NCBI GenBank assembly: GCA_015233565.1
Contig: JADFXM010000043.1
Coordinates: 44-64,043, forward strand
DNA: 64,000 nt
From: Candidatus Rifleibacteriota bacterium
GTDB lineage: Bacteria > Muiribacteriota > Ozemobacteria > Ozemobacterales > Ozemobacteraceae
Reading direction: 5' to 3'
This document shows positions 19,007 to 54,269 of the stretch, one piece after another. The translations under genes and the position numbers were made by a program. Position 1 is the first letter of the stretch; every line of letters begins with the position of its first letter. The notes under the pieces were generated by a model. It made no database searches. It worked only from the letters and a program-made list of their open reading frames with translations, and was not told the DNA's origin.

Positions 19007-19424
19007 TTTGTGAACAGGTACAATTTTCAGGTTCTAAGTAAACTAGCAGAAACTCCCAATTTTGAAAAAGTGAAAGTCCTTTTGAAAAAACTCCGCCAAA
19101 CCCAGTGGAAAAACCTTTGTTAGGATTTTGGAATTATGCAATAAGCTCAGATAAGCTTTTTTTAGGAAAGTCATTTTCGTCACCGGTTCCTCTTACAGCT
19201 TCACGATTTCTTCCTAAAATTGTGCGCTGTTTACGAAACATATTGGGGGAATTTCTGTTCGACAGCCCGGGGCAACCAACCGAAGATCGATCAGGATTTT
19301 TTCCCTCGTTGCCGTTCAGCAGGACGCCTGGGGAAACCTGTGTCATTGAATATCTCGTTGGATTGCTCTGTATCAATTACGGAATTGCGGTTGTCGCAAT
19401 AAAGAATTAATTTGTGGGAGAAAT

Positions 19425-29402: not shown

Positions 29403-29471
29403 TTTTTTGCCTTCTTCAATGGGAGTTTGCAGTTTAATGTGGTTTTTCTAAGTGATGATAGGAGAAAAAAG

Positions 29472-29990
29472 ATGTCTACACCAACACAATATCAAAATTC
29501 CGAAAATTTACACAATTTCAGCCTGATCGTGGCCAATAATCCGGGGGTATTGGTGAGAGTGGCTCTGATCTTTTCTCGAAGGGGGTATAATATCGAATCT
29601 CTTGTGGTATCACCGACCAAGTTACAGAAATTTTCTCGAATGATGATCACAGCCCGTGGAGAGCCTTCTCGTTTTGAACAGATAACGAAACAAATTTCCA
29701 AACTTGTGGATGTCATTGAGGTCGAAGAGCACAACAAAGAAGACATTCTCAAAAAAGAACTCATGTTCGTGAAAGTGGGTACCCAAGAGGATAAAAGAAA
29801 GGAACTTTTTCAGATCGTCAGCGAAAATCACGGAGAGATACTGGACTTTAATTTTCAGTTTACGGTTTTGCAGTTTATCAACAATAAAGACCGCCTTGAT
29901 GGGATTATGAGCAGGCTTGAGGGATTTGAAATCTTTGAAGCAGCACGCAGCGGATGTCTTGCCATGTCGCTCAATCATTCATGCCTTTAG
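29472..29990 (+). CDS. ilvN: Acetolactate synthase small (regulatory, ACT-domain) subunit
   Basis: ACT-domain signature (SLIVANNPGVLVRVALIFSRRGYNIESL). The start was chosen at ATG 29472, preceded by GGAG. The track ORF begins upstream at 29427. Confidence 0.8.
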   Translation: MSTPTQYQNSENLHNFSLIVANNPGVLVRVALIFSRRGYNIESLVVSPTKLQKFSRMMITARGEPSRFEQITKQISKLVDVIEVEEHNKEDILKKELMFVKVGTQEDKRKELFQIVSENHGEILDFNFQFTVLQFINNKDRLDGIMSRLEGFEIFEAARSGCLAMSLNHSCL

Positions 29991-30020
29991 TTCAGAATCA
30001 CAAAAAACAAGGAGAACAAA

Positions 30021-32758
<2,738 letters not shown>

Positions 32759-33074: not shown

Positions 33075-33315
33075 AATATGCTTTAATTCGAAGTTCCAAA
33101 CGTGGTACATTGATAGAGCTCTGATGGAGCAGTGCAAGAAGGTGAAATTCGCGTTAATCAAAAAAGGACCCTGTCCATGTGAACCTTTGGATGTTCTCTT
33201 GAGATCATGATCTTCAAGGCATTACATGGACAGTTTTTTTTGGTGAAAAATAGGCTCAAACAATCATCCTACTTGTGCTTTATGCCATTTTAGACTTGGA
33301 ACTTCGGTTTAATGG
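33075..33315. repeat. ~240-bp repeat (family D), left copy of an inverted pair
   Basis: Its reverse complement is about 90-95% identical to 46488-46730. It contains a 10-bp inverted repeat ctgtccatgt...acatggacag (33171-33233) that encloses the palindrome gatcatgatc, flanked by an A-run and a T-run. Confidence 0.8.
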
Positions 33316-33413: not shown

Positions 33414-33571
33414 ATACCAATCCCAAAAAATATGTGCATCACCCCAAGAACATTGATTTGATCAAAATGAAGTTGGATCGGTATATTTTCTGTATTTTCC
33501 AAGAAAACACGAAACTTTCATGAAAATAAGAGGCCCTTAGTGGATGGTTGAAGCATTCATTTCCGTCAGAC
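33414..33571. repeat. Dispersed repeat family C copy
   Basis: Direct match of about 85% to 63843-64000, the end of the window. The ORFs 33290..33502(-) and 63737..63922(-) lie in the two copies and are probably non-coding. Confidence 0.7.
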
Positions 33572-34120: not shown

Positions 34121-35338
34121 ATGGCAACAAGCTTTAATTCAGGGGACGCCGCCTGGGTTCTCACGTCTTCAGCTTTAGTTTTATTAATGACACCAGGGTT
34201 ATCGTTTTTCTATGGAGGGATGGTTTCCAAGAAAAATGTAATTTCCACCATGTTTCAAAGTTTTATTTCAATGGGAATCACAAGTTTATTGTGGGTGATA
34301 TTCGGTTTTAGTCTGGCTTTTGGTGACAGTATCGGTGGATTCATTGGAAATCCCACAACTTTTTTCATGTTTAAAGGTGTAGAAGGCATTCCCAATGGTG
34401 CTTTTGCGACAACTATTCCTTTTGCTCTTTTTGCATTGTTTCAATTAAAATTTGCAATCATTACTCCCGCCCTTGTTACAGGTGCGTTCGCAGAAAGAGT
34501 AAAATTCAAAGCTTACATGATATTCATTGTTCTTTTCAGTACCCTGATTTATGCTCCAATCGCTCATTGGACTTGGCACCCTGATGGTTTTTTAAGAAAA
34601 TGGGGTGTCCTTGATTTTGCTGGTGGAACTGTGGTCCACATGTCAGCCGGTATTGCGGCTTTGGTGGCCGCCTGGATTTTTGGTCAAAGAAGTGCTGTTA
34701 TAGAAGATCCCAGCCATAGCCACGAACCGGCAAATATCCCCTATATACTTCTAGGGACCGGTATGCTTTGGTTTGGTTGGTTTGGATTTAATGGCGGTTC
34801 TTCCCTGGCAGCTACCGATGTGGCCGTGACCGCATTTTTAACAACCAATACAGCTTCAGCAGCTGCGATGCTAATGTGGCTTCTGATTGAAGTCCTGAGG
34901 GGAAATCAACCCTCAGCCATGGGGGCTTGCATCGGCGCCGTTGTGGGATTAGTAGCAATTACCCCAGCAGCTGGTTATGTAACTATTGGACACTCAATGA
35001 TCATTGGTGCCATTGCATCTTTTGCAAGTTACTATGCCGTAAAAATAAGCTCTAGAACTAACCTGGATGACACGTTGGATGTTTTTTCATGTCATGGTAT
35101 AGGCGGAATAACAGGAATGATATTAACTGGAATATTTGCAAAAAATGTTGGATTAATTTATGGGGAGTCAAGAACTTTCCTGTATCATCTACTAGCTGTT
35201 ATTATTGTGGGAGTTTACACCTCCGTAATGAGTTATATTTGTTTTAAAATCGTGGATGCTCTTATCCCGCTCCGAGTTAGTAAGGAGGAAGAAGACCAAG
35301 GACTGGATTTATCTCAACATGGTGAAGTTTACGCATAA
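34121..35338 (+). CDS. amt: Ammonium transporter (Amt family)
   Basis: 405 aa, 11-TM. The Amt N-terminus is conserved (DAAWVLTSSALVLLMTPGLSFFYGGMV). No adjacent P-II gene. Confidence 0.95.
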   Translation: MATSFNSGDAAWVLTSSALVLLMTPGLSFFYGGMVSKKNVISTMFQSFISMGITSLLWVIFGFSLAFGDSIGGFIGNPTTFFMFKGVEGIPNGAFATTIPFALFALFQLKFAIITPALVTGAFAERVKFKAYMIFIVLFSTLIYAPIAHWTWHPDGFLRKWGVLDFAGGTVVHMSAGIAALVAAWIFGQRSAVIEDPSHSHEPANIPYILLGTGMLWFGWFGFNGGSSLAATDVAVTAFLTTNTASAAAMLMWLLIEVLRGNQPSAMGACIGAVVGLVAITPAAGYVTIGHSMIIGAIASFASYYAVKISSRTNLDDTLDVFSCHGIGGITGMILTGIFAKNVGLIYGESRTFLYHLLAVIIVGVYTSVMSYICFKIVDALIPLRVSKEEEDQGLDLSQHGEVYA

Positions 35339-35717: not shown

Positions 35718-37079
35718 TCACCAACAAAGTTGAAACGCTAGTTCCAACGCCTGGCTGGCGTTCAACCGCGGGTCGCAAAGCGTAACATAATTGCCGGCTG
35801 CAAGGTTCTCCTCGGTGATCTCCTGATCACCCCCCGTGCATTCAACGACATCACGGCCAGTCAGTTCGAAATGCACACCACCGGCGTATGTTCCTTCGCT
35901 CTTGTGAATGTCAAAGAACTTCCGGACTTCGGCGAGTATATTCTTGAACGGCCGGGTCTTGAAGCCATTAGGCGCCACGACCGTATTTCCGTGCATCGGA
36001 TCGCAGCACCAGACGACATTCCGACCTTCACGACGTATGTGTCGAATTAACGTGGGCAAAGCCTTTTCAATCGTTTGATATCCCATTCTGGTTATGATAG
36101 TCAAGCGACCGGGATCGTTATCGGGGTTCAGGATATCGATCAGCTGCAGTAGCTCTTCCGAGGTGATACTGGGGCCGCATTTCAAGCCGATCGGGTTCCC
36201 CACTCCCCTCAGAAACTCCACGTGGGCGCCATCCGGTTGCCGGGTGCGTTCACCGATCCATAACATATGGGCTGAGCAGTCATACCAGTCACCTTCGTAA
36301 CCATGCGCCGGTCGTGCGGTGGTGCTGTCCCTTCGGGTCAATGCCTGTTCGTAATTTAGCAACAACGCTTCGTGCGAGGTATAGTATTCCACGACGCGGA
36401 TTTGGGGACTTGTTTCGGCCGTGATTCCGACCGCAGACATGAAGCCCAAGATCTCGTCCAAGCGGTTCGCGATGCTTTCGTATTGCGTCGACTGCGTGCT
36501 GCGTTTGACGAAATCCAGATTCCAATGATGAACCTTATGAAGATCGGCGTAACCACCATAAGCAAAAGCGCGAAGCAGATTGAGCGTCGAGGCCGCCTGG
36601 GAGTAAGCCCGTAGCATGCGCCCTGGCTCCGCCACGCGGGCGTCGCCATCGAATTCATAACCGTTTATTATATCGCCACGGTAGCTGGGCAAAGTAACGC
36701 CATCGCGGCTCTCGGTATCACCGGACCGTGGTTTCGCGAATTGCCCCGCCATCCGCCCGACTTTCACGACCGGCACCTTCTGCCGGAACATCAGAATTAC
36801 CGCCATCTGTAATAGGACACGAAACGTGTCACGGATGGTATTAGCGTTGAAGTCATCAAAACTTTCCGCACAGTCCCCTCCTTGAAGCAAAAACGCACGA
36901 CCCTGGCAGACCTTCGCCAGTCGCTCCTTAAGCTGTCGTGCTTCTCCGGCGAAAACCAACGGCGGGTACTGCGACAACTTCCGTTCCACGCAAGCTAAAT
37001 CCTTACTATCCGGATAAACGGGCACTTGTTGAATTCTTTTCTTCCGCCAGCTTTCGGGCGTCCAGATGATATTATTCAT
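35718..37079 (-). CDS. aroG: 3-deoxy-D-arabino-heptulosonate 7-phosphate synthase, class II (plant/actinobacterial type)
   Basis: 453 aa with the characteristic class II length and N-terminus (WTPESWRKK...VPVYPD...QGGDCAESF). Last gene of the high-GC operon. Confidence 0.9.
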
Positions 37080-37390
37080 GAAACTTGCTTTCCTTTTTTC
37101 CGGGATTGGCGTTGAATTCTCAAAGACTCAGAATGGATCAGCCGCAGCAATGCACTAACGAAACGCTGGTCGAGCCCTAGGCTCATGGCCCAGTCAGAAC
37201 GGGTCGCAACCACTTCCTCCCATCGCGCCTTTTGAAAAGACCCCAGACTAATGGCTTCTTTCTCAACAATTATCTCATGCACTGCCGAGAAACGATCGGC
37301 CAACGCCCGTAGCAGACGTCGGTCGGCAGCATCCACACGTCTACGAAGCTTGCCAAGTCGAGCCTCTGGTGAAGTAGTCAAAGATCTCAT
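37076..37390 (-). CDS. Chorismate mutase (AroQ-class, monofunctional)
   Basis: 104 aa, all-helical. The segment [19 protein letters not shown] is CM_2-like. Start and stop overlap the neighbouring genes. Confidence 0.7.
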
Positions 37391-38256
37391 CGACGGTTTC
37401 CTCCATCGGGAGTTTGAATACGCGTCAGTATTCTACCTATTTCGTTGGCCTGTTCCATCAGACCGCGTGTCCGCCGCCCTTCCACCAGGCTTTCACGAAA
37501 ATCCTGGAGGTGCTCAATGTATGAGTCCAAGGCGGCTGTCACATTACTTAAATTCTGGCGGAAGATAGGCGCCCACATATCCGGCGAACTTTTGGCCAGA
37601 CGGACGGTAGACTCAAAACCGCCGCTAGCGAGGTCAAAAATAGTCGCGGTGTTTTTTTCCTGGTCCAGTACGGTGTTAGCCAGAACAAAGGAACTAATGT
37701 GCGACAGATGACTGACAAAAGCCACATGTAGATCGTGCGCCATCGAGGTCATGTAGACCAGACGCATTCCCAGCACGGAATACATTTTTTCTACACGCTG
37801 CAAATGCTGGAGGTCACTCGCATCCCGGTTGCAAATCACAGCAACGCGCTGGTCAAAAAGTCCCTGCAAAGCAGCACTGGGCCCGGAGTGTTCCGTTCCT
37901 GCCATTGGATGCGCCGGGACGAATTGGCGTCTTCTGAAATGTCCTTCCACGGACTTGCAGATCAGATCCTTGGTCGAACCCACGTCAGTGACCGTAGCGT
38001 TTCCGGAGGCCAGCTCAAGTACACGGGGGAGGGTTTCGAGAATAGCGTCGACCGGCAACCCCAGTATGATCAGATCCGCAGAAGGCACAGCCGCTTCGAG
38101 CGGCAGAACCTCGTCAACGAGCGAAAGCTCAAGCGCTTTATCGGCATGTTCCCGAGAAACGTCCGAACCCAAAATCCGTCGGGCAAACCCGCGTGCACGC
38201 AGGTCCAATCCAATGGAACCACCGATCAATCCCAAACCAATAATTGCTACTTTCAT
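37387..38256 (-). CDS. tyrA: Prephenate dehydrogenase
   Basis: 289 aa. Rossmann N-terminus MKVAIIGLGLIGGSIGLDL and a TyrA-type catalytic domain. Confidence 0.85.
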   Translation of the reverse strand: MKVAIIGLGLIGGSIGLDLRARGFARRILGSDVSREHADKALELSLVDEVLPLEAAVPSADLIILGLPVDAILETLPRVLELASGNATVTDVGSTKDLICKSVEGHFRRRQFVPAHPMAGTEHSGPSAALQGLFDQRVAVICNRDASDLQHLQRVEKMYSVLGMRLVYMTSMAHDLHVAFVSHLSHISSFVLANTVLDQEKNTATIFDLASGGFESTVRLAKSSPDMWAPIFRQNLSNVTAALDSYIEHLQDFRESLVEGRRTRGLMEQANEIGRILTRIQTPDGGNRR

Positions 38257-38265
38257 ATCAACCTT

Positions 38266-39441
38266 TCAGGCCAACCTTCTCAGGGCTTCGGATAGTCGCT
38301 CGCGAGAAGCACATAACGACGCACGCGCATACCGGATGCCATTCGATCCAAAGACCATGCCAGGCGTGAAAAATATGTGCCGGGACTCCAGCAGCTCGTC
38401 AAAAAAAACTTCGACATCGGGAATCGCTTCTGGCGCACGGGCCCAAACGAAAAGACCCACCTGCTTCCGATCATAGCTGAACCCCAACCGGTCGAAAATC
38501 CGCCAGACCAACTCGCGGCGTTCCTGATAGATCTCATTTCGTGCGCGATGCCAATCATTGTCTGTCGCCAATGCGGCAACCGCACCATGCTGCACGGGGA
38601 GAAACATTCCGGAATCGACGTTGCTTTTCACCCGCAGAGTAGCATCGATCACTTCTTTCTCCGCCAAAAGAAGCCCGACCCGCCAACCGGCCATGTTGAA
38701 GGACTTACTAAGCGAGTTGAGTTCCGCACAAAACGGCGATCCGCCCGCGCATCGTAACAGACTAAGCGGCGAACTTTGGTTCAAAACCAAACCGTATGGA
38801 TTGTCGTTGCAGAGCAAAATACGACGCTTCCAACAGAATTCCGCCAGAGCATGAAAAGCACCTTCCACACCGCTCGCTCCCGTGGGCATATGCGGATAGT
38901 TGATCCACATCAATTTGCACCCTCCGAGATCCTGGCGTTCAAGCTCCTTGATATCCGGCAACCAGGCATTCGCTTCGCTCAAATTGTACCGATGAACCCT
39001 CGCACCCAATAACCGCGCTGCTGAAGAGTAGGCAGGGTAGCCGGGATCGGGTATAAGTACACCATCTCCTGGATTCAGCAACCCCATCGAAAGATAGAAA
39101 ATTCCTTCTTTCGATCCCAGCAGGGGAAGAAGCTGGCTTTCAGGATCGACGGAAACAGAATATGTGCGCTCATACCAATTCGCCATAGCGACACGAAGCT
39201 CCGGAGTCGATCTGTATGATGCATAACCGTGATTATTTCCGCACGCCAGTGACGATGAAGCAGCTTCGACAGCCCGAGGCGGCGGAGGTAAATCAGGACT
39301 TCCGATTCCGATATTTATGACGTCATGACCTTTGGCACGCAGTTGACGGATCAACTCAAGCTTGCGCGAAAAGTAATACTCGGTAACCTCGCTCAACCGA
39401 TCGGCAAATTGGATGCTTACAACCATGGACGATCTCCACAC
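38266..39441 (-). CDS. Class I/II pyridoxal-phosphate aminotransferase (probable aromatic/prephenate aminotransferase)
   Basis: 391 aa. Motifs NYPHMPTG and SKSFNMAGWRVG (the PLP lysine region). Embedded in the Phe/Tyr operon. Confidence 0.8.
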   Translation of the reverse strand: MWRSSMVVSIQFADRLSEVTEYYFSRKLELIRQLRAKGHDVINIGIGSPDLPPPPRAVEAASSSLACGNNHGYASYRSTPELRVAMANWYERTYSVSVDPESQLLPLLGSKEGIFYLSMGLLNPGDGVLIPDPGYPAYSSAARLLGARVHRYNLSEANAWLPDIKELERQDLGGCKLMWINYPHMPTGASGVEGAFHALAEFCWKRRILLCNDNPYGLVLNQSSPLSLLRCAGGSPFCAELNSLSKSFNMAGWRVGLLLAEKEVIDATLRVKSNVDSGMFLPVQHGAVAALATDNDWHRARNEIYQERRELVWRIFDRLGFSYDRKQVGLFVWARAPEAIPDVEVFFDELLESRHIFFTPGMVFGSNGIRYARASLCASRERLSEALRRLA

Positions 39442-40256
39442 CGATATTCTCCGAACTGGACTAAATTCAAAGCCATATCAGGCAACTCAGCCAAAGCCGC
39501 CAAGTATTGCGCACGGTCATTCCATTCAATATCCACATGAAAAGAATACTTATAAGGCTTGCCGAGGACTGGCACCGATTGAATTTTGGTCAGATTGATA
39601 GCGTGACGGCTGAAAATCCCTAGAATCGCGGACAAACTGCCAGGTTCATCAGGGGACTCGAAACACAGGGTAGCCTTGTTCGCGCCCTCGGGAACCAAAT
39701 AATCCTCCCGTCGACAGATAGCCAGAAATCTGGTGTAATTCTGGCGATTTGACTCTATTCCCTCACGCAGAAGTTCAAGGCCATAGGTTTGCGCGGCCAA
39801 CCGACTAGCGATGGCGGCATACCCCCGTAGGCCCTTGTCTCCGATATGTTTCGCGCTTTCTGCGGTGTCCGCGGCTTCCAGGATTTTCATTCCCGGAAAA
39901 CCGGAAAGAAATTCATCGCACTGGGCGAGGGCCATGGGGTGTGATTGTACAAACTTAATCTCGGAAAGCTGTTGTCCGGGTAATGCTAACAGACACATTT
40001 CAATCCGCAAGTAGATCTCCCCGAGAATGCAGAAATCATGATTTTTCAATAAGGAGTAATTAGGAAGAATGCTGCTGGCGATCGAATTTTCGATGGCCAT
40101 CATACAAACATCCACTTCCTTGCGATCCAGAGTAAGACAAAGCGACTTGAAAGACGCGCACTCAACCGGCTCAATTGACTCGGAAAAATAAGCACGTGCC
40201 GCTACATCATGAAAACAGGCTCGAACGCCCTGAATACCAACCTTACAAGACTTCAT
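39417..40256 (-). CDS. pheA: Prephenate dehydratase (PDT + ACT domain)
   Basis: 279 aa. A PDT domain followed by a C-terminal ACT-like region. Its start overlaps the aminotransferase gene. Confidence 0.85.
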
Positions 40257-41359
40257 AAACGCGCACCCCGATTTCTGAGAAAATGATCAGCGATAGTGAT
40301 GGCAGCCATCGCTTCAACGATCGGCACTGCCCGCGGCACCACGCACGAATCATGGCGTCCACGCCCAGGCAGCACCGTAGTTTGCCCTTGCCTATCCAAC
40401 GTTGTCTGTGATTTGAGCAAGGTCGCGACAGGTTTGAAGGCGACCCGAAAATCAATATCCATACCATTGCTAATGCCACCTTGAATACCCCCCGAATGGT
40501 TAGTGCTCGTTTCGGTTCGCTCCCCAACGCGCACAAAAAGATCATTATGCTCGGAACCGCGCAACGACACGCCACTAAAACCCGAGCCATATTCAAACCC
40601 TTTGACGGCATTGATACTCAGCATCGCTTTTCCGAGATCCGCATGCAATTTATCGAAAACCGGATCCCCCAAGCCTACCGGACAACCCCGAATGATGCCG
40701 TTGACAACTCCACCGGTGGTATCACCGTCCTTTTTCAGTGCTTCGATGAATTCTATTATTTTTGCAGCCGTCCCGGGGTCAGGGCATCGCGTAATGTTAG
40801 TCTCTGAGAACGCATCCATAAATTGTTTGTCGGCGAATAACTTATCGGCCAACATCGCATCGTGGGGCATAGATATCCGGCCGACCTGTGAAACATAGGC
40901 TCTAATCGCGACATTGAATTCCCCTAGCAAGAGCTTTGCCACTGCACCTGCGGCAACTCTCGCGGCAGTCTCACGAGCAGAGGAACGCCCACCCCCGAAA
41001 TGATCCCGCACCCCATATTTCTTTTCATAAGTGAAATCCGCGTGCGAAGGCCTATACGCATCGCCATTATGCGAGTAATCATCTGGCCGCTGGTCTTCAT
41101 TAATGATCAGAGCGGTCAGAGGCGTCCCAGTCGTCCGACCTTCAAAAAGTCCGGAAACAAACCGAACCCTATCAAGTTCGTTGCGCGAAGTGGTCAACTT
41201 TGATTGTCCCGGCCGACGGCGATCAAGCTCCGATTGCACGAACCCCAGATCGACCGCCAATCCAGCCGGACAACCGTCGATAACAACTCCAATCAGTTCA
41301 CCATGTGACTCTCCGAAAGTGGTTACTCGAAATAGCTGTCCGAAAGTATTTCCTGCCAT
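40253..41359 (-). CDS. aroC: Chorismate synthase
   Basis: 368 aa. N-terminus [18 protein letters not shown] and other conserved AroC blocks. Confidence 0.95.
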
Positions 41360-41362
41360 TTT

Positions 41363-41812
41363 CTAGTCCTTCTTTTCGAGCAATAACTCAAGAGCGTTCG
41401 CATAGGAAAGCCAGCCCAAACCAGAAATCTGTGCAAGACAAACCGGTGCGATAACTGACACCTGACGGAAACTCTCGCGTTTTTTTATATCACTGAGGTG
41501 AACCTCGATCGTCGGCACCGCAATTGCCGCAACGGCGTCTCTCAGCGCGTAGGAATAATGTGTATACGCACCGGGATTGAATACCACGCCATCGGCCCAC
41601 CGCCGGTTTTTGTGCAAAAGGTCAATCAGCGTGCCCTCGCTGTTAGATTGGTGAATTCTAAGGATGCAACCATGAGATCTGGCATTGGCACGCAGTTTTC
41701 TGTTTATTTCAGCGAGCGTCAAAGTACCATAGACATCGGGTTCACGTTCGCCCAAAAGATTCAAATTTGGACCGTGCAAAATCAAGATACGCCGATCACT
41801 TTCGTTCCTCAT
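41363..41812 (-). CDS. aroQ: 3-dehydroquinate dehydratase, type II
   Basis: 149 aa, with ILILHGPNLNLLGEREP...HQSNSEG. Confidence 0.9.
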   Translation of the reverse strand: MRNESDRRILILHGPNLNLLGEREPDVYGTLTLAEINRKLRANARSHGCILRIHQSNSEGTLIDLLHKNRRWADGVVFNPGAYTHYSYALRDAVAAIAVPTIEVHLSDIKKRESFRQVSVIAPVCLAQISGLGWLSYANALELLLEKKD

Positions 41813-42945
41813 TTTAATCCTCCAATGAGCTTCAGGGCAGATCGAAGATGCCGCCTGTTGATATTACCATCCGTTTTCACGCGCCCTGCCCTTCCGTCCA
41901 AGAGCACAAAATGAAGCTTCCCACCGCGGTTCTTTTTGTCCTTGGACATTATAACATGAAGTTCTTCTAGCGTAATCCCTGCCGGCAGAGCGGGTATTTC
42001 CAACCGCGCGAGGGTCGAATCCAAGTCCATTCTTTTTTTGGAACTCAGCAATCCCCGGACTTCAGAAAGGGCCAAAGCAAAACGCATGCCCCAAATTATC
42101 GCTTCACCGTGCTGGAACATCTTATATTGCGTGATGCTCTCCAGGGCATGGCCGAAGGTGTGGCCAAAATTAAGCACCTCACGAATCCCCAAGCGATCAA
42201 GTTCGTCTTGCGCTACTACACTGCATTTCCATTCAAGCGACCGCTGTATGGCTGGACCGAGCAGCAAAGCATCGCGAGCCAAAAGCCGCTCGAGATTTTT
42301 ATCAAGACTTCGATAAAACGCAGGATCGAATACCAATCCGTATTTCAGTATTTCACCTAAACCGGAGACAATTTCCCGACGCGACAGGGTCGAAAGGAAA
42401 TTCAAATCACAAATCACCCCATCCGGTTGATGAAAGGCGCCAATCAAATTTTTGCCCGAAACATGATTTATTCCAGTTTTGCCACCCACGGCGCTGTCGA
42501 CCTGCGCGAGGAGCGTCGTCGGAACACCGATCCAGGAAATACCGCGCAGATAAGTCGCCGCAACAAAACCGGCCGCGTCTCCGACGGTCCCTCCACCCAG
42601 AGCAAAAAGAACCGAGTGGCGGTCCGCCCCGTGTTTAAGCAGTTCACCATACAAACTATTGATCGAGGAAATTTCCTTGAGGGACTCTCCTGCCTGAACG
42701 GGAATCTCATGCACCTTCCAACCCGCACCCCGCAGCGCTTTTCGCAACGATGACATTGCGTCAATCAGGATCTCGTCATAGACCACAAAAGCCCGAGCCA
42801 GATTGCCAGATCGTCCGTCAACCTTTTTGAACAACTCTATCGCTCCAGCGCCAATAAGGATGTCATAAGATCGGCTCACCGCGGACGCTTTTCCGAAAAA
42901 CTGTTTGACCCGACAGAACGGTGAATGAACAGATTTGAAAATCAT
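41809..42945 (-). CDS. aroB: 3-dehydroquinate synthase
   Basis: 378 aa. NAD-binding GGGTVGD and metal-binding His residues of the DHQS family. Confidence 0.9.
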   Translation of the reverse strand: MIFKSVHSPFCRVKQFFGKASAVSRSYDILIGAGAIELFKKVDGRSGNLARAFVVYDEILIDAMSSLRKALRGAGWKVHEIPVQAGESLKEISSINSLYGELLKHGADRHSVLFALGGGTVGDAAGFVAATYLRGISWIGVPTTLLAQVDSAVGGKTGINHVSGKNLIGAFHQPDGVICDLNFLSTLSRREIVSGLGEILKYGLVFDPAFYRSLDKNLERLLARDALLLGPAIQRSLEWKCSVVAQDELDRLGIREVLNFGHTFGHALESITQYKMFQHGEAIIWGMRFALALSEVRGLLSSKKRMDLDSTLARLEIPALPAGITLEELHVIMSKDKKNRGGKLHFVLLDGRAGRVKTDGNINRRHLRSALKLIGGLK

Positions 42946-44381
42946 GAAAATTCCCCCTCTTCGGTCAAACGAATTATCACAGCCGCTACCGCGTTAGGCT
43001 CAAGATTGTCGGTTTGGACACGATGGGATGCGCGCAGGTAAATCGCCTGCCGTGCTTTTACCAGATTTTCAAGCCTGGAGTCCACCGAAATCTGACCGTC
43101 GGATTTTGCTGGCGACAAAAGCGGCCGAACCTTCAGCTCATTTTCGCTGACCTGGAGCCGTCGGACCAGGGCCGATGTCTTGGCCTCCAGATACACAAGG
43201 ATTCCAGACCTCTCGACAGCTGCCAAGGTTCCGTCAGTCATGAGCGCCCCTCCACCGAGAGCTACAACTGTCCTAGTCCGCGCGGCCGAGTTTAAGACAG
43301 CTTTCTTTTCAAGAACGCGAAAAGCCTGTTCGCCTTGCTGTTCAAAAATCTCGCTAACCGATAACCCACTCTCTGCTTCTACAAGGCAATCCGTGTCGAC
43401 AAAATCCCAGCCAAGACGTTGGGCTAGAATAGAGCCAACGGTGCTCTTGCCGGCTCCCATGGGACCACAAAGAAAAATCGGGGGGGCGAGGGCTCGACGT
43501 AACTCCGGCATGATTGATGGAAGAATTTCTCCTAATGACTCTGAAGTCGAGTTCGTCCAGATTTTCCAACTCTCAATCGCTTGGTGCACCAGCATGTCAA
43601 GACCTGCCACGCAACGAAAGCCAAGATGGCTCGCCAGCGAAAGAAACGGCGTCCGCTCGGGATTGTAAATCAAGTCAAAAGCAAGCGCGTCGGGTTCCGG
43701 TGAAATCCGTGCCAATCCGGAAAAAAACTCTGAGGTTGCGTTAATGTCCCCCTCCATGGCATATCCTCGCATGCCAACAGGTGTGGTGTTAACAACCAAG
43801 CCCACTCGAGTCAAAACGGCGGGCACAACCCCATAAAAGCGCGTCTTGGGAAAAAGAGGGGTAAACGCCGATATCAAAGCCTTGGATCGAGCCTGATCAC
43901 GGTTCAATACAGCCACGGATGCAACGTGACGCCAGCCAAGAGCGTGAAGCACCGCCTTGGCTGCTCCCCCAGCTCCCCAGACAACGACGTTACAATCGTG
44001 AAGCTTTATCTTACGATCATCGAGAACCCTAAGGAAACCGATGTAATCAGTATTATGCCCGATAAGCTTACCGTCCTTCAAATGTACCAAGTTGACGGCG
44101 CCAATCGCTCGGGCCTGAACAATGACTTCGTCCAACTCGGCCAGTATAGCTTCTTTATGGGGCACGGTCACGTTGATGCCGACAAACTCTGGGCAGCATC
44201 GCAGCTCATCGAGATAAGTGCGAAGATCACGGGGCAAAACCTCGACAGCGGAATAAGTGAAATCGCGCATGCCTAGACGTTCGGCCAGAATCAAATGGAG
44301 CACCGGCGAAAGGGAATGAGAAATCGGATTCCCTATTACCGCCCCTTTTAAACCCCCTTTTGTTCCACTCATGGCCGGCAA
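42942..44381 (-). CDS. aroE-aroK: Bifunctional shikimate dehydrogenase / shikimate kinase (AroE-AroK fusion)
   Basis: The N-terminal 270 aa are AroE-like (GVIGNPISHSLSP, NVTVPHK, the VVVWGAGGAAKA Rossmann). The C-terminal roughly 190 aa are AroK-like with Walker A IFLCGPMGAGKSTVG and DTD. It is a single ORF. Confidence 0.85.
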   Translation of the reverse strand: MPAMSGTKGGLKGAVIGNPISHSLSPVLHLILAERLGMRDFTYSAVEVLPRDLRTYLDELRCCPEFVGINVTVPHKEAILAELDEVIVQARAIGAVNLVHLKDGKLIGHNTDYIGFLRVLDDRKIKLHDCNVVVWGAGGAAKAVLHALGWRHVASVAVLNRDQARSKALISAFTPLFPKTRFYGVVPAVLTRVGLVVNTTPVGMRGYAMEGDINATSEFFSGLARISPEPDALAFDLIYNPERTPFLSLASHLGFRCVAGLDMLVHQAIESWKIWTNSTSESLGEILPSIMPELRRALAPPIFLCGPMGAGKSTVGSILAQRLGWDFVDTDCLVEAESGLSVSEIFEQQGEQAFRVLEKKAVLNSAARTRTVVALGGGALMTDGTLAAVERSGILVYLEAKTSALVRRLQVSENELKVRPLLSPAKSDGQISVDSRLENLVKARQAIYLRASHRVQTDNLEPNAVAAVIIRLTEEGEFS

Positions 44382-45667
44382 AGCCTTTCAAGTGTAGCGA
44401 AAAATTCCGGATAGGAAATTCCGACGCATTCTGCGTCATGAATCGTGGTATCCCCTTCTGCCACCAGTCCGGCGATGCTGAAGGCCATCGCGATCCGGTG
44501 ATCATGAAAACTACGAATATCCGTGCCGCGAAGGGACTGCCTACCCGCGAGCGTGAAGCCATCTTTCCGAGTCTCGATGCTGGCACCCATGGCACGAAGA
44601 TTGACAGCAACCGCTTCAATACGGTCACTTTCCTTCACACGCAGCTCTTCGGCACCTTCGACGACGGTCTCGCCGACCGCCTGACTTGCAAGCACCGCAA
44701 GCATAGGCAACTCGTCGATCAGCGCCGGTATCTCGGACACAGTTACGCGAATTCCTTTCAGATTACTAAAACGGGCCTCGATACAACCGACTGGCTCAGG
44801 AACTTCCGATTCAAGCTCGACAACAATATTAGCACCCATTCGCTGCAGGGCACGAATGAATCCGATGCGAGTGAAATTTAATGAGATGTTTTCAAGCCGC
44901 AAATGAGCACCTGGCACTAAACACGCGGCAGCCAGCCAAAACGCTGTGGCAGAGGGATCGCCAGGAACCAGGACTCGATTAGCGACAAGAGTTTGACCAC
45001 CCGTAATGCTTAATTCGCTCGAACTTTCCTGTAGTTTTGCTCCGAAGTGTCGAAGCATTCTTTCCGTGTGATCGCGGCTGTCGATCTGGCCTGTGATACG
45101 AGTCACACCCTCGGCCAATAACCCGGCCAAAAGTACTGCGGTCTTAAGCTGCGCGCTGGCTACAGGAAGCGAATAGTTTATTCCATGCAACTTGGAGCCT
45201 TGAATCGTGAGTGGTGCATAATCATCGGCGGTCAATTCTATCCGCGCACCCATCAAAAGCAAGGGCGCGGCCACCCGACGCATTGGGCGCCTAACCAACG
45301 ATGCGTCACCAGACAAAGTGGCGGTGATATCGCCACCGGCAAGCACGCCCATGAGCGTGCGAATTGTCGTACCTGAGTTCCCACAATCCAGCACACGCAC
45401 GGGCGATGTGAACCCTTTCACACCCAAGCCTTCTACGGTTGTCAAGGTCGTTCCGTCAGATGCGCCGGAGCGAATTATGGAAACACCGAGATCGCCAAGA
45501 CAACGAGCGGTAGATTGGACGTCTCCGCCAGTTAAGATATTAGTGATTTCGGTCCTGCCCTCGGAAAGAGCACCCAGGATGAGCGCCCGATGCGATATGG
45601 ATTTGTCGCCCGGGATATTTGGTTTACCTCTAAAACAAGCAGCCCTGTGCACAATTTGATTGGCCAT
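44369..45667 (-). CDS. aroA: 3-phosphoshikimate 1-carboxyvinyltransferase (EPSP synthase)
   Basis: 432 aa. Motifs GDKSISHR and LDCGNSGTT. First gene of the operon. Confidence 0.9.
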   Translation of the reverse strand: MANQIVHRAACFRGKPNIPGDKSISHRALILGALSEGRTEITNILTGGDVQSTARCLGDLGVSIIRSGASDGTTLTTVEGLGVKGFTSPVRVLDCGNSGTTIRTLMGVLAGGDITATLSGDASLVRRPMRRVAAPLLLMGARIELTADDYAPLTIQGSKLHGINYSLPVASAQLKTAVLLAGLLAEGVTRITGQIDSRDHTERMLRHFGAKLQESSSELSITGGQTLVANRVLVPGDPSATAFWLAAACLVPGAHLRLENISLNFTRIGFIRALQRMGANIVVELESEVPEPVGCIEARFSNLKGIRVTVSEIPALIDELPMLAVLASQAVGETVVEGAEELRVKESDRIEAVAVNLRAMGASIETRKDGFTLAGRQSLRGTDIRSFHDHRIAMAFSIAGLVAEGDTTIHDAECVGISYPEFFATLERLCRP

Positions 45668-45887: not shown

Positions 45888-46196
45888 TTACCGTATCGAC
45901 TTCCTCTGGACTTTTGACCTTTGAAGCGCCTGCAAGAAAAGTTTTATTACTGTTTTCGAATCAATCCGCCTTCTTACAAGTGCCAGAGCATCGATTGTGT
46001 CGTCGGCAAATTTGCCAACTCCAAGCCATATCTGGCCTTGTTTTGAAAGAGTTTGTGCCAATCTGGCACGACTCTGACAATTCAATACACTGATGTTACC
46101 GTTGTGAATCCTTTCGTGAGAATGGGTTTTTAATAAATCTTTCCTCAGCCTTTCTCGCATGGCATATAATTTGTTACTTTGCTGATGTTCCTCCAA
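45888..46196 (-). CDS. Hypothetical 102-aa ORF (possibly a gene remnant) upstream of the aro operon
   Basis: ORF only. No motif recognised. It lies in the AT-rich spacer between aroA and the right inverted repeat. Confidence 0.25.
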   Translation of the reverse strand: MEEHQQSNKLYAMRERLRKDLLKTHSHERIHNGNISVLNCQSRARLAQTLSKQGQIWLGVGKFADDTIDALALVRRRIDSKTVIKLFLQALQRSKVQRKSIR

Positions 46197-46487
46197 AAAA
46201 GAATGTATGAATCCTCTCTGGAGGATTTACATTAGATCCAGCGACCGTGCCTGTTTTTGGGGCAATTCTCCCATCGAGGCTAACAGCAGCTTTTAGAGTG
46301 AGCCGAGGTCGTCCATCTTTGTGGAAAGCAGAGTTCCTAGCGGGTCTTTCCATCAGATTAATGCATCAACGCTCACAATCAGCAATAAATCATCGGCTCC
46401 AAATAAATTTTGGTGGATATTATACTTTACTGATGAATGAAATTCTATACTTTTTTAAATTTTTGTCCAGGAGATTTATGATTCCTA

Positions 46488-46730
46488 AACCGAAGTTCCA
46501 AGTCTAAAATGGCATAAAGCACAGGTAGGATGATTGTTTGAACCTATTTTTCCCAAAAAAACCTGTCCATGTAATGCCTTGAAGATCATGATCCAAAGAG
46601 AACATCCAAAGGTTCACATGGACAGGGTCCTTTTTTGATTAACGCGAATTTCTCCTTCTTGCACTGCTCCAATCACAACTCTATCAATGTACCGCGTTCG
46701 GAACTTCGGCTTAAATGCCGCGTTCCTTTT
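46488..46730. repeat. ~240-bp repeat (family D), right copy (inverted relative to 33075-33315)
   Basis: Reverse-complement match to the left copy, including the internal hairpin cctgtccatgt...acatggacagg flanked by A/T runs. Confidence 0.8.
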
Positions 46731-47953: not shown

Positions 47954-49225
47954 TTGTTAGCAATATTTGTTGAATATTTGTTCCGGGTCTTGATAATAAG
48001 AAGCAATTTTGATAAAATTGCTTTCACTATTTCAAGTCAAAAGGGATCTTTCGCCCAAAAGATGATAAACCAAACAAGAGAGAAACTAAAAAGTAGTTTA
48101 CTGGATATTGTCGCTCTCAAAGACCCTTCCGTTTTTAAAGACTCGGAAAAATTCGCAAAACTTATGTTGGAAAGAACCAATTTAGGTTTTACACTTGAAT
48201 TTCTTGCGCTTAAATTAGGGTTGAGTGACCTTGTTCCATGGACTCTACGAAAATTCTCAGGGTCCACCCTCATTGCTCAAGGCATTAAAGATCTCGCTGA
48301 AAAACTTGCAAAAAATCACCAACTCCCCCTGGAAATAGCCGTCTGGTCAGTTGAGACGTGGGCCGAAAGCGTTGGGATTCCTTTCTCCCCTTCCCCAGTT
48401 ACTCATCCAAAAACTGTCCCGACAAATAATACCGAAGTTTCATATACAGAACCAACTAGCCGATTAGGTGTGTTATATGGTCTGGACGTGCAAAATTCAA
48501 TTCGCGTTTTTAAAGTCTGGTGGAAAAGCCCTTTACCGCAGGAGACCCAAGACCTTTGCGCCATTTCAGTAAAGAGAGAAACTTCACTCACCAAGCCAAT
48601 TGTGTCATCCAACTCCAAATGCCACACAACTTCCGGCGTAAATTCCATTTCTTCACAGCCTCCTTCACTAGCTTCAAAGAATAATTCCAAACCACAATCG
48701 GAAAAAGAATCCCTTAGATCAATCGACAAAACCACTTATGAAGAAAAACCGAATCCCGCAGCCACCATTCCTGCCAAACAGGGAACCACCGGAGGGAAAA
48801 AAACCTTATTAAGGCCCATAGCAACCCCGAGTTTCAGTCAAGTAGCTGACCAACATTATAATCAGGCATTAGCTCTATTGGAAACTTCGCATGGCAAGTC
48901 AAACATTAAAGAAGTCGTCGCCGAATTTGTGAAAGCCGCAAACGCTGGGCATCTCCTAGCTGAATATCGGATCGGAGAAATTTACCTAAGGGGCTTTTTT
49001 GTACAAGAGAATTTTGATGTCGCCTTTAAATGGTTCGAATCAGCGGCAAAAAAAGGTTATGCCGAAGCCCAATTGGAATTAGGAAGCATGTATCAGTGCG
49101 GCATTGGAATCGAACTTAATCTCACCGAAGCGCACAAATGGTATGAGAAAGCTGCTAATCAGGGGAATCTGGAAGCGAAAAATCTGTTAAGCCAAATGGA
49201 CAACCCCAACGGAGGTAGGTCATGA
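47954..49225 (+). CDS. Sel1-repeat (TPR-like) protein with uncharacterised N-terminal domain
   Basis: The C-terminus carries 3-4 Sel1 repeats (AEYRIGEIYLRGFFVQENFDVAFKWFESAAKKGYAEAQLELGSMYQCGIG...AHKWYEKAANQGNLEAK). First gene of a tightly spaced six-gene operon. Confidence 0.7.
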   Translation: MLAIFVEYLFRVLIIRSNFDKIAFTISSQKGSFAQKMINQTREKLKSSLLDIVALKDPSVFKDSEKFAKLMLERTNLGFTLEFLALKLGLSDLVPWTLRKFSGSTLIAQGIKDLAEKLAKNHQLPLEIAVWSVETWAESVGIPFSPSPVTHPKTVPTNNTEVSYTEPTSRLGVLYGLDVQNSIRVFKVWWKSPLPQETQDLCAISVKRETSLTKPIVSSNSKCHTTSGVNSISSQPPSLASKNNSKPQSEKESLRSIDKTTYEEKPNPAATIPAKQGTTGGKKTLLRPIATPSFSQVADQHYNQALALLETSHGKSNIKEVVAEFVKAANAGHLLAEYRIGEIYLRGFFVQENFDVAFKWFESAAKKGYAEAQLELGSMYQCGIGIELNLTEAHKWYEKAANQGNLEAKNLLSQMDNPNGGRS

Positions 49226-49404
49226 ACCAGGAACAAAACAAAACGATAGTCAATCAATCATTAATATTCTGGTGCGGCATAGTTATAGTTGAGTTGTTTG
49301 TGATCGCCTACTTGATTCAGGCCCCATTGGTTATTCTCGGAAGCTTGCTTTTAATTTGGCCTATTCGCGCAGCCATGAATTGGCCAATGCCACAAACGGA
49401 GTAG
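49222..49404 (+). CDS. Small (60 aa) two-TM membrane protein
   Basis: Overlaps the upstream stop (ATGA) and ends 0 bp before the next start. Two hydrophobic helices. Confidence 0.5.
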   Translation: MNQEQNKTIVNQSLIFWCGIVIVELFVIAYLIQAPLVILGSLLLIWPIRAAMNWPMPQTE

Positions 49405-52158
49405 ATGATGGAGAAAATTGAATGCCTGGTAAACTCCGGAGTCTCCTTTTACACTCCGGAAAATGATTTGCAGTTTCCCGACGCATTATTGTTCAAAACC
49501 TGGACATTTCGTGTCTTACAATCCCCAAAAGGCGCCATTTCTCTTCAATTAGGCGCAACTCCAATCATTGATGCCCTTGCCGAAGGGAAAGACCCCCTGA
49601 TCGACATCGGCCAACTTTCTCTTCGGTTTCAGGATGTTTTAAATATTTGTACAGGGAAATGGCTTCCGCTTCCCTTCTCACGTAAGGGAGCGGAAGAATC
49701 GGTTTCACGAAGCAAAGATTGGGTAAGACTTTTCTTGCACAAACCTCCGTTAAAAAACGATGCAAACATTTTTCGGTATGTACTTGCTTTTGACACGCTC
49801 GTCAATTCAACGGAAACTTCTGATAATCCCGGAAGAGATCTTTTGGGATTTTTCCCCGAAGACGTTGGTCTGCCTTTTGAGTTAAACCCAGGCTCAACCG
49901 GATTCTGGCAGACTCCAACTCTTCTAAACTGGATCAAAAACATTTTCAAGGAAATTCCGGCAGAAGGAGCCGATCCAATGCCTCCGCATATCGGAAGTCT
50001 GGCTGCCTTTATGACGCTGGTTGACGGGCTTAAACAGGCAGATATTATCCCAGAGATAACCTTTTTGAATCCTGAAGGCCAAAACATCGACGCTCATTTA
50101 ATTCTTGATCTGGGAAACAGCCGCGCCTGCGGGATTATCGCCGAACAAGCCCCAGGGCAGGGAGTAAATCTCGATGAATGTTGCAAGCTTGAAATTCGAG
50201 ATTTGAGCGAACCTACTCAAACATACACTGAGCCATTTGATACGTCTTTCAAATTCCGCCCTCCGCTCTTTTTTGATCCGAATCAAGGAGCTCCTCACGC
50301 TGGGGCTGGTTTTTTCTGGCCCAGCCTTCTTCGTCTGGGGCGCGAAGCTGCAAACCTGGAACCCTCGGACGTAGGCGACACTGGTATGTCAAGCCCCAAG
50401 CGATATTTATGGGATAACCAGCAACGACATTTTCCCTGGTATTTCAACCTTCCCGAGGCAAACCTCGGCAAAAAAATAAACGCTCCTTTCCTCAAATTCC
50501 TTGACGAAAATGCTGTTTTTCGCGGAGACAAAGCCCAACCCCCATTTGAACCATGTTATCCACCAAGTTCAATGATGGTTTTTTTGATTCTGGAAGTCCT
50601 GAATCACTGTTATTCTCAAATCAATTCGTTTTCATTTCGAAAATCCCGTGGACATCGTCTTTCAAAACGTGTTTTACGGAATATTGTAATCACCACGCCT
50701 TCAGGTATGTCCGGTCCCGAAAGAGATATTTATCGGGAGCGCGCTCAATCGGCCATTGATCTCTATTTCCATGTGTTTGGCTGGCCGGAGGAAATGAAAC
50801 CCAAAATTCATCTTGAGTTTGATGAAGCCACCGCTGTGCAGCTTACATACCTGTATGGTGAAGTGAAACATCGCTTTTTAGGCAACGCCAAAGAAGTATT
50901 CGAAACACTCGGTCGCGAACGCGCCGCTGAACATGATCTTCGCAAACCCATTTTTCGGCTTGCAAGTATTGACATTGGCGGTGGAACGAGCGATTTGATG
51001 ATTGCCGAGTATAATTCATTGCCAGCTGAACCTTCCGGAGCACGTCAGAAAAAACTATTCTCCGAAGGCTTTTCAATAGCGGGCGATGAGATAGCAAAAC
51101 GCATAATCGAAAAGATAATTATTCGCCGCGTTTTTTCATGGGCGCAACAAAAAAATCAAAGAATTTCCTGGGAAGAATTTCAACTCTTCTTCGGCCCAGG
51201 GCGCGGGGGGCGGGACAAACATTTTATAGACATGAAAGCCGAACTCTGCCGCCAGGTCTGGATTCCAATGGCTCATCGCCACCTTGAATTCGCCGAACTG
51301 GAAACGGATGACACCGATTTGGAATTAGGATTCGATCAATTTTTTTTACGACGCTTGCCCGGCGCCAATGTGCTCGATTTCTTCGCGGAACACCTGAAAA
51401 AGGAATTTGACTGCGACATCACTCTCCCGGAAATTCCCTGGCAACTTTCGAAACGCCAAATCAATACAGTTATTGCCAATGTTATCGAAAATATTCTTCG
51501 AATTTTTTCCGAAGTAATCGCTCAATTTGATTGTGACGCGCTTATTTTGGGAGGAAAACCCTCGTCCTTACCAATCATTCGAGAGATTCTTGTGCGCCTG
51601 ATGCCCGTATCGCCGGAAAAAATCATCAGTTTGAAAGGATACCCGGTTGGAAGCTGGTACCCATTTTCCCAAAAAGGCGGAGGAATCTCCGACCCCAAGA
51701 CCACATGCGTCATGGGAGCCGCGGTCTGGTTGTTTTCAGAAAAACTGCGAAACCTCGACGGGTTGAACTTGATCACTGACCCCGACTCCATACAGGAACG
51801 GAAATGTTTCATTGGAACATTTTCTCCCGAAGATTTGAAAATTGACCAAATGGTCTTTCCCTCCGCTAACGGCGTTGTTGAAACGAATAAATCAGCTCTT
51901 TTGGGAATACGCCGTGTCGATTCAGAAGTTTGTCCAGTCAACCCAATTTGGGAGTTACTTCTTGATCGCGAAAACCTTAAAGGACAAGGTCCCTTCAAAG
52001 TCAAACTCGTACAGGATCCCAAACAGCGTGAGTGTTTGTCAATTGAAGGGCTCGAAGATGAGCGAGGAACGAAAGTTGACTCGCGTTTGGCGAAACTCAG
52101 GCTTCGCACCATGATAGCCGATCAATATTGGCTCGACACTGGTTCTTTCGATTTGTAA
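49405..52158 (+). CDS. Large (917 aa) Hsp70/actin-fold ATPase-domain protein
   Basis: Hsp70-NBD-like motifs in the canonical order: phosphate-1 HLILDLGNSRACGII, connect-1 IVITTPSGMSGPERDIYRERAQ (compare VITVPAYFNDSQRQATKDA), phosphate-2 ASIDIGGGTSDLMIAEY, adenosine DALILGGKPSSLPIIREIL. A roughly 230-aa N-terminal extension is unique. Confidence 0.8.
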   Translation: MMEKIECLVNSGVSFYTPENDLQFPDALLFKTWTFRVLQSPKGAISLQLGATPIIDALAEGKDPLIDIGQLSLRFQDVLNICTGKWLPLPFSRKGAEESVSRSKDWVRLFLHKPPLKNDANIFRYVLAFDTLVNSTETSDNPGRDLLGFFPEDVGLPFELNPGSTGFWQTPTLLNWIKNIFKEIPAEGADPMPPHIGSLAAFMTLVDGLKQADIIPEITFLNPEGQNIDAHLILDLGNSRACGIIAEQAPGQGVNLDECCKLEIRDLSEPTQTYTEPFDTSFKFRPPLFFDPNQGAPHAGAGFFWPSLLRLGREAANLEPSDVGDTGMSSPKRYLWDNQQRHFPWYFNLPEANLGKKINAPFLKFLDENAVFRGDKAQPPFEPCYPPSSMMVFLILEVLNHCYSQINSFSFRKSRGHRLSKRVLRNIVITTPSGMSGPERDIYRERAQSAIDLYFHVFGWPEEMKPKIHLEFDEATAVQLTYLYGEVKHRFLGNAKEVFETLGRERAAEHDLRKPIFRLASIDIGGGTSDLMIAEYNSLPAEPSGARQKKLFSEGFSIAGDEIAKRIIEKIIIRRVFSWAQQKNQRISWEEFQLFFGPGRGGRDKHFIDMKAELCRQVWIPMAHRHLEFAELETDDTDLELGFDQFFLRRLPGANVLDFFAEHLKKEFDCDITLPEIPWQLSKRQINTVIANVIENILRIFSEVIAQFDCDALILGGKPSSLPIIREILVRLMPVSPEKIISLKGYPVGSWYPFSQKGGGISDPKTTCVMGAAVWLFSEKLRNLDGLNLITDPDSIQERKCFIGTFSPEDLKIDQMVFPSANGVVETNKSALLGIRRVDSEVCPVNPIWELLLDRENLKGQGPFKVKLVQDPKQRECLSIEGLEDERGTKVDSRLAKLRLRTMIADQYWLDTGSFDL

Positions 52159-52174
52159 TTTTCAGGAGGGCATC

Positions 52175-52900: not shown

Positions 52901-52913
52901 AAGGCGGGTAACC

Positions 52914-54266: not shown

Positions 54267-54269
54267 AAT

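Follow-up and report, generated by a model that had tools for sequence, protein, structure and literature searches.

A complete phenylalanine and tyrosine operon with an AroE-AroK fusion, probably acquired by its present low-GC genome

The window analysed here is a 64,000-nucleotide (nt) stretch of contig JADFXM010000043.1 from an assembly labelled Candidatus Rifleibacteriota bacterium (GCA_015233565.1). On its minus strand, ten adjoining open reading frames (ORFs) between positions 35718 and 45667 are predicted to encode a route from DAHP (3-deoxy-D-arabinoheptulosonate 7-phosphate) synthase to Phe and Tyr. We consider it highly probable that these genes form a single co-directional, translationally coupled operon of a conserved modular family, and that the window holds a trp-less module most likely acquired horizontally from a donor of higher guanine-plus-cytosine (GC) content. 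An ordinary but unusually complete Phe/Tyr operon is well supported, and its acquisition is probable.

Each of the ten ORFs falls in its expected family according to the ORF list and to Pfam and NCBIfam searches, and eight reach or exceed curated family cut-offs (Table 1). The searches recovered all seven shikimate activities (DAHP synthase, AroB, AroQ, AroE, AroK, AroA and AroC) and, for Phe and Tyr, a CM_2 chorismate mutase, a prephenate dehydratase (PDT) with an ACT domain, a PDH_N/PDH_C protein that keeps the GxGxxG and HPMAG motifs of TyrA, and an Aminotran_1_2 protein. An earlier note, made from the letters of the window, had proposed this complete route, and all of its families were matched. 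That note had also described ten minus-strand genes with overlaps of 4–25 bp. The genes are indeed contiguous, but only seven of the nine junctions are overlaps, the largest likely one being 10 nt, and the remaining two are gaps of 3 nt (aroQ/aroC) and 9 nt (aminotransferase/tyrA). Read from aroA to the DAHP synthase gene, the junctions are −4, −4, −4, +3, −4, −10, +9, −4 and −4 nt. Ahead of the internal genes lie Shine-Dalgarno-like motifs.

An identical arrangement of all ten genes was found in at least six other metagenomic contigs or contigs of metagenome-assembled genomes (MAGs) (L001, L002/L003, L004, L085, L086 and L172). Named relatives are labelled Bdellovibrionota, Bacteriovoracaceae or Oligoflexia, with MAGs labelled Bdellovibrionota making up the main part of the family, and L004 belongs to a Bacteriovoracaceae MAG. 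Gene-by-gene identities to the window are uniform and are given in Table 1; in the related loci, the leading aro gene is 58–64% identical to aroA, which opens the operon. A seven-gene trpEGDCFBA block lies directly upstream in L001, L002, L085 and L086, giving a 17-gene aromatic supraoperon, and in L004 trpD-C-F-B-A runs upstream to the contig end. A divergent LysR gene stands before the trp block in L002, L085 and L086. The window, L172 and L173 are trp-less at the operon locus. Shorter forms also occur: L173 is a nine-gene variant without the aminotransferase, L084 reads aroA-aroEK-aroB-aroQ-aroC-DAHP synthase, and L087 reads aroA-aroEK-aroB-aroC. In L172 (GCA_964395265.1, 5935–6791), whose ten-gene operon is in other respects identical, the pheA call is split into pieces of 226 and 57 amino acids (aa), which indicates a frameshift or a sequencing error.

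The absence of trp genes reported in the earlier note was borne out for the window, where neither trp genes nor their remnants were found anywhere (tblastn E > 0.26). Trp pseudogenes upstream of aroA were considered and rejected; the only match there is a weak RibD_C-like fragment. As judged from these comparisons, the operon is no one-off invention but forms the aro/phe/tyr module of a larger family, which often has trp genes as well. The suggestion of a self-contained cassette also stands, in that the block behaves as one: the same ten genes sit in unrelated genomic contexts. A tree of nine concatenated proteins (3144 columns) is star-like, with the window 38–42% divergent from the other copies and those copies 33–41% divergent among themselves. 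Because of this topology and divergence, the window copy is placed as another deeply branching member of an old family of operons, with its close donor unsampled. A literature search returned nothing relevant on an aromatic operon in Bdellovibrionota.

Composition sets the operon apart from its surroundings. GC content per gene is 0.49–0.54, and GC at third codon positions (GC3) is 0.47–0.62, compared with 0.32–0.48 for every other gene in the window; the shift is present at all three codon positions. The steps in GC coincide with the first and last codons of the operon, and the flanking intergenic DNA is 0.39–0.42 GC. Tetranucleotide usage of the operon correlates with the rest of the window at 0.48, whereas 10-kb segments that do not touch the operon reach 0.94–0.98, and the dinucleotide difference delta* is 87 for the operon against 22–68. 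Given this anomaly in GC3, tetranucleotides and dinucleotides, it is plausible that the operon is foreign to the present low-GC genome and came from a higher-GC donor. Foreign origin had been proposed in the earlier note as well, partly on the ground that the DAHP synthase is of class II. Composition makes the proposal plausible, but the enzyme class is no argument for transfer, as a class II enzyme is encoded by the conserved last gene wherever the operon family occurs.

The same compositional data bear on whether the operon could instead be native and vertically inherited, its higher GC arising from selection on highly expressed or conserved biosynthetic genes. Other conserved metabolic genes of the window are indeed mildly GC-enriched (GC3 0.44–0.48 for ilvBHDC and 0.41 for gltB), and native descent would fit both the lack of mobility genes at the borders and the failure to find a close donor. 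The operon's shift nevertheless far exceeds that of any other conserved gene, at every codon position, and its tetranucleotide signature is a clear outlier. Furthermore, in the seven other loci examined the operon stays within about 0.065 of the GC of each flank, and a strong mismatch is seen in the window copy only. We therefore regard native inheritance as unlikely.

A second alternative is that the mismatch is an artefact of assembly, in which a GC-rich block of another organism was joined in, or misplaced across repeat copies. The genome is metagenome-assembled, the change in composition is abrupt, and a 231-bp repeat resembling a miniature inverted-repeat transposable element (MITE) lies on both sides. 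This repeat has terminal inverted repeats (CGAAGTTCCAA), an internal hairpin and a fold z-score of −3.4, and its two inverted copies bracket amtB together with the aro operon. An artefact would, however, need two independent chimeric joins; the GC steps fall at the ends of the operon genes and not at the repeats, amtB has native composition although it lies inside the pair, and repeats found in both flanks recur elsewhere in the contig. On these grounds an artefact is extremely unlikely. Since the GC boundary lies at the operon ends, amtB is native in composition and further families of short repeats are dispersed over the contig, we interpret the 231-bp pair as dispersed, genome-specific repeats, which link the two flanks to a single genome, and not as proof of a composite transposon.

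Several observations weigh against horizontal acquisition or against the roles assigned to individual genes. Because no close donor was found, every other copy being 38–42% divergent, the case for transfer is one of composition. No integrase, transposase or tRNA was found at the operon borders, and among the AmtB and GltB relatives examined for synteny no empty pre-insertion site was found. The contig is labelled Riflebacteria, but MAGs with similar gltBD genes are labelled Bacteroidota and Bacteriovoracaceae, and vertical inheritance within a Bdellovibrionota-like host is possible. With respect to function, chorismate mutases of the operon family have Trp where the E. coli enzyme has Glu52, although the active-site Arg, Lys and Gln are retained, and the aminotransferase scores below the cut-offs of every named NCBIfam equivalog.

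One product of the operon is a protein in which shikimate dehydrogenase (residues ~10–280) is joined to shikimate kinase (~297–470) by a helical linker (~277–294). The ORF, given in the earlier note as a single one of 479 aa, is uninterrupted and intact, and its domains are collinear with those of homologues. The domain search proposed there matched Shikimate_DH and SKI in this one ORF, and a frameshift separating aroE from aroK, which would have undone the proposal, was not seen. The length did not hold: 479 aa corresponds to the longest possible ORF, from a TTG start, whereas starting at the ATG at 44372 gives 476 aa, overlaps aroA by 4 nt (ATGA) and reproduces the deposited 476-aa protein exactly. 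The start is thus most likely ATG 44372. The score against TIGR00507, 201.3, barely exceeds the cut-off of 200.2.

We aligned the window protein with 28 full-length homologues. In the AroE domain, K73, D109, N94, Q264 and the GAGGA nucleotide-binding loop are invariant, as are the Walker A motif GxxGxGK309, the DTD aspartate D328, R352 and the GGG shikimate loop (G373–375) in the AroK domain. We take these residues to have the catalytic roles of their counterparts in the E. coli and M. tuberculosis enzymes. An AlphaFold2 model built from the 29-sequence alignment has a mean predicted local distance difference test score (pLDDT) of 90.6 and a predicted template modelling score (pTM) of 0.85. 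Because the model is confident and its linker helical, it suggests that the fusion adopts a defined two-domain arrangement, as opposed to beads on a string. Among solved structures none spanning the AroE-AroK pair was found; only AROM holds both domains, in the other order. A literature search likewise found no paper, structural or biochemical, on a bacterial AroE-AroK fusion.

The arrangement had been called uncommon. It is a minority architecture, yet it cannot be called rare: among the best 150 clusters at 50% identity, about 115 match both domains in one collinear stretch, as read off the output table, and a few show the reverse domain order; both Pfam domains are also present in most of the 120 best clusters at 90% identity. 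Two groups can be told apart. Members of the first are 440–500 aa long and 37–47% identical to the window protein, and those that are named come from MAGs labelled Bdellovibrionota or Oligoflexia; members of the second are about 404 aa long and come from Clostridia. A peptide-pattern scan of genome contigs, with patterns that the window's own fusion does not match, returned mostly single-domain AroE and four true fusions (L004, L005, L006 and L036). The predicted AroE-AroK fusion is widespread in sequence data.

Neither PheA nor TyrA carries a chorismate mutase domain, so the small CM_2 protein would be the sole chorismate mutase of the operon. Its gene overlaps each of its neighbours, tyrA and the DAHP synthase gene, by 4 nt. 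A profile of five orthologues matches the chorismate mutases of Bartonella, Thermus and E. coli (E 2e-10 to 6e-7), and R16, R33, K44, R56 and Q93 are conserved. The mycobacterial AroQ-delta mutases MtCM and CgCM were matched by the same profile at E 0.26–0.27 only. We therefore rejected a mycobacterial-type complex of DAHP synthase and chorismate mutase; as the mutase is not of the AroQ-delta type, any regulatory complex between the two enzymes is speculation. The aminotransferase is presumed to be an aromatic or prephenate aminotransferase and is 57–64% identical to the gene at the same position in related operons. Its likelier start is ATG 39426, which has GGAG 7 nt upstream; an alternative GTG at 39441 gives a 25-nt overlap with pheA.

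The closest solved relative of the DAHP synthase is the Pseudomonas aeruginosa enzyme 5UXM (640 bits), with M. tuberculosis AroG at 435 bits. This assignment is relevant to the possibility that the operon is a redundant cassette supplying the precursors of a secondary metabolite, comparable to the Nostoc trp/aro supraoperon or to phzC, and has no housekeeping role. Redundant, laterally acquired aromatic supraoperons are documented (PMC1173090). In addition, MAGs whose gltBD are 81–87% identical to those of the window carry a class I-beta DAHP synthase, which hints weakly at a native route. The window enzyme, however, is of the long, primary-metabolism form (5UXM) and not of the short PhzC-like form (6BMC). 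The neighbourhood (amtB, a racemase, a Sel1 protein and Srf genes) is free of biosynthetic-cluster genes, and the end products of the operon, Phe and Tyr, are proteinogenic. Precursor supply is thus very unlikely to be the function of the operon.

Our working scheme infers co-transcription, the activities of the enzymes, channelling, and when and in which direction transfer took place. Within it, the probable start of transcription is in the AT-rich 1.1-kb stretch upstream of aroA, and overlapping stop and start codons would couple translation along the operon. Phosphoenolpyruvate and erythrose-4-phosphate would be converted to chorismate by class II DAHP synthase, AroB, type II AroQ, AroE-AroK, AroA and AroC. 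Chorismate mutase would then form prephenate, from which PDT-ACT, TyrA and the aminotransferase would yield Phe and Tyr. Two routes from prephenate fit the gene set, one through PDT or TyrA followed by transamination and one with transamination to arogenate first. The fusion would join consecutive steps in reaction order (dehydroshikimate to shikimate to shikimate-3-phosphate) and fix the stoichiometry of dehydrogenase to kinase, and hand-over of shikimate may be favoured. Feedback control would be expected, from the families concerned, on PheA at its ACT domain and on the class II DAHP synthase.

Searches for control signals gave little. The aroA leader is AT-rich, and no Shine-Dalgarno motif was found in it. 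It contains no T-box, riboswitch or attenuator according to Rfam, and a leader peptide was rejected as its sole small ORF is not rich in Phe or Tyr. A promoter scan was near chance. A consensus scan gave 21 intrinsic-terminator-like sites in the scanned region, some of them inside the operon, which is hardly above chance when set against 14.2 ± 3.8 in shuffled sequences.

Table 1. Genes of the operon and copies of the bracketing repeat, with window coordinates, profile matches and, for genes, identity of related loci to the window.
Feature	Coordinates	Strand	Length	Matches and remarks	Identity to related loci
aroA, 5-enolpyruvylshikimate-3-phosphate (EPSP) synthase, shikimate step 6	44369..45667	-	432 aa	PF00275 382 bits; TIGR01356 399.6 (cut-off 287)	58–64%
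aroE-aroK fusion, shikimate steps 4+5	42942..44372	-	476 aa	Shikimate_dh_N, SDH_C, Shikimate_DH, SKI	38–43%
aroB, 3-dehydroquinate synthase, step 2	41809..42945	-	378 aa	PF01761, PF24621; TIGR01357 334.5 (cut-off 305)	52–58%
aroQ, type II 3-dehydroquinate dehydratase, step 3	41363..41812	-	149 aa	PF01220 187 bits; TIGR01088 179.3 (cut-off 169.9)	62–76%
aroC, chorismate synthase, step 7	40253..41359	-	368 aa	PF01264 445 bits; NF003793 450.7 (cut-off 321)	65–70%
pheA, prephenate dehydratase with C-terminal ACT	39417..40256	-	279 aa	PF00800 179 bits; PF01842; TRF motif	55–63%
Class I pyridoxal phosphate (PLP) aminotransferase	38266..39426	-	386 aa from ATG 39426	PF00155 186 bits	57–64%
tyrA, prephenate/arogenate dehydrogenase	37387..38256	-	289 aa	PF02153, PF20463; NF006307 341 (cut-off 295)	54–61%
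Small AroQ-class chorismate mutase	37076..37390	-	104 aa	PF01817 (CM_2) 57 bits	36–47%
Class II DAHP synthase, step 1, last operon gene	35718..37079	-	453 aa	TIGR01358 685.5 (cut-off 614.7), residues 6–451; above the PF01474 threshold	71–73%; 53% to L084
MITE-like repeat, left copy	33082..33311	+	231 bp	94% identical to reverse complement of 46486–46715	
MITE-like repeat, right copy, inverted	46486..46715	-		94% identity to left copy	

On its lower-coordinate side the operon is flanked by gltBD, a gene of unassigned family, ilvBH-ilvD-ilvC and amtB, and on its higher-coordinate side by genes of the racemase family, of a Sel1-repeat protein and of SrfB/SrfC type. Between the operon and the right-hand repeat, a short minus-strand ORF (46174–46353) begins with a weak likeness to the RibD C-terminal domain (E 0.03) and may be a gene remnant. 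AmtB (34121–35338, plus strand) has 405 aa and is N-terminally shorter than its homologues of 433–470 aa. It has no relative above 69% identity in a protein search, and none above 66%, with no synteny, in a metagenome-contig scan; no glnK/P-II gene was seen beside amtB. The gltB/gltD genes (19425–25419) are 81–87% identical to those of contigs L168–L171, labelled Bacteroidota or Bacteriovoracaceae, and may have been exchanged. Those contigs are not syntenic with the window; their ilv genes are 34–47% identical and differently arranged, and they carry the class I-beta DAHP synthase inside an ilv/leu cluster. The ilvB-ilvH-ilvD-ilvC genes (27732–32758), with GC3 of 0.44–0.48, lie between native genes and the aro operon in composition and may be an older acquisition.

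Farther along the plus strand, the region 47954–56834 holds a Sel1-repeat protein followed by 'virulence factor' genes of the SrfB and SrfC (Virul_Fac) families, with two genes lacking a family match among them. At 58697–61345 (+) lies an 882-aa bacterial protein resembling Major Vault Protein (MVP), with shoulder and vault-repeat domains. An ORF of 1866 aa (11492–17092, minus strand) and the ORFs at 9546–11120 and 25831–27597 have no Pfam match. Other repeats are also present. What looks like a nested repeat consists of a ~205-bp element (18723–18935, 95% identical to 1161–1374) inside a second element at 18643–19005. The second element is unbroken at 63631–63783 (98–100% identity), where the two matching segments share 5 nt, possibly a target-site duplication, and a 150-aa ORF at 18671–19123 is probably spurious. 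A third short dispersed repeat forms an intergenic direct pair of ~80% identity at 33414–33570 and 63843–63990.

For the window alone, the outcome is mainly a clean annotation and a probable transfer event. The wider interest lies chiefly in modularity at the scale of a pathway and in the pointer to a common, uncharacterised fusion enzyme. An entire pathway of 11 activities can be packed into one tightly coupled unit and, apparently, exchanged as such, which would be relevant to shifts between auxotrophy and prototrophy in uncultured, possibly predatory or host-associated lineages. The operon is also a compact natural template for pathway engineering, and the fusion offers a simple test case for whether joining consecutive enzymes gives substrate channelling. 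Tentatively, and with considerable doubt, we propose that the block of ten genes, like its trp-bearing form of 17, is a mobile "aromatic prototrophy cassette" that moves as a unit between distant bacterial lineages, its fusion handing shikimate directly from dehydrogenase to kinase. If this were true, the 17-gene form, which leads from central metabolites to all three aromatic amino acids, would rank with the most complete amino-acid pathways known in a single operon.

Aromatic supraoperons to which a trp block can be attached have long been described, some of them laterally acquired (PMC1173090). Examples are the Bacillus subtilis aro-trp-hisC-tyrA-aroE supraoperon, the Desulfovibrio vulgaris aro genes with a seven-gene trp operon, the Phe/Tyr operons of Enterococcus and Streptococcus, and, in Nostoc/Anabaena, a trp/aro supraoperon. 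These systems share with the window many aromatic-pathway genes in one co-directional unit, a trp block that can be attached or absent, and a precedent for lateral transfer. The window operon differs in covering every step from DAHP synthase to Phe and Tyr in its own fixed gene order, and in its combination of class II DAHP synthase, type II dehydroquinase and AroE-AroK fusion; among the operons mentioned in the passages of PMC1173090 considered, none matches it in content, order or completeness. The 10-/17-gene family (L001, L002, L004, L085, L086, L172, L173 and L084) has gene families and gene order identical to those of the window, and its overlapping junctions are similar. It differs in the trp block, which lies upstream in five of its loci and is lacking in the window as in L172 and L173.

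The fusion has counterparts in eukaryotes, where AROM and the plant dehydroquinate dehydratase-shikimate dehydrogenase (DHQ-SDH) likewise join shikimate enzymes. AROM includes both AroE and AroK, but within five domains ordered AroB-AroA-AroK-AroD-AroE, whereas the window protein has two, AroE and then AroK. Clostridial AroE-AroK proteins (~404 aa; Pseudoflavonifractor and Mageeibacillus L006) have the same domain order and are also encoded in an aro cluster. They are shorter, ~30–34% identical to the window protein, and their cluster reads tyrA-aroEK-aroB-aroA-aroC-aroQ-pheA; a class II DAHP synthase was not found in the L006 locus. Finally, P. aeruginosa PA2843 (5UXM) and M. tuberculosis AroG are full-length class II DAHP synthases like that of the window. 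The small chorismate mutase coupled directly upstream of the window enzyme resembles generic AroQ, in contrast to the mycobacterial AroQ-delta partner of AroG.

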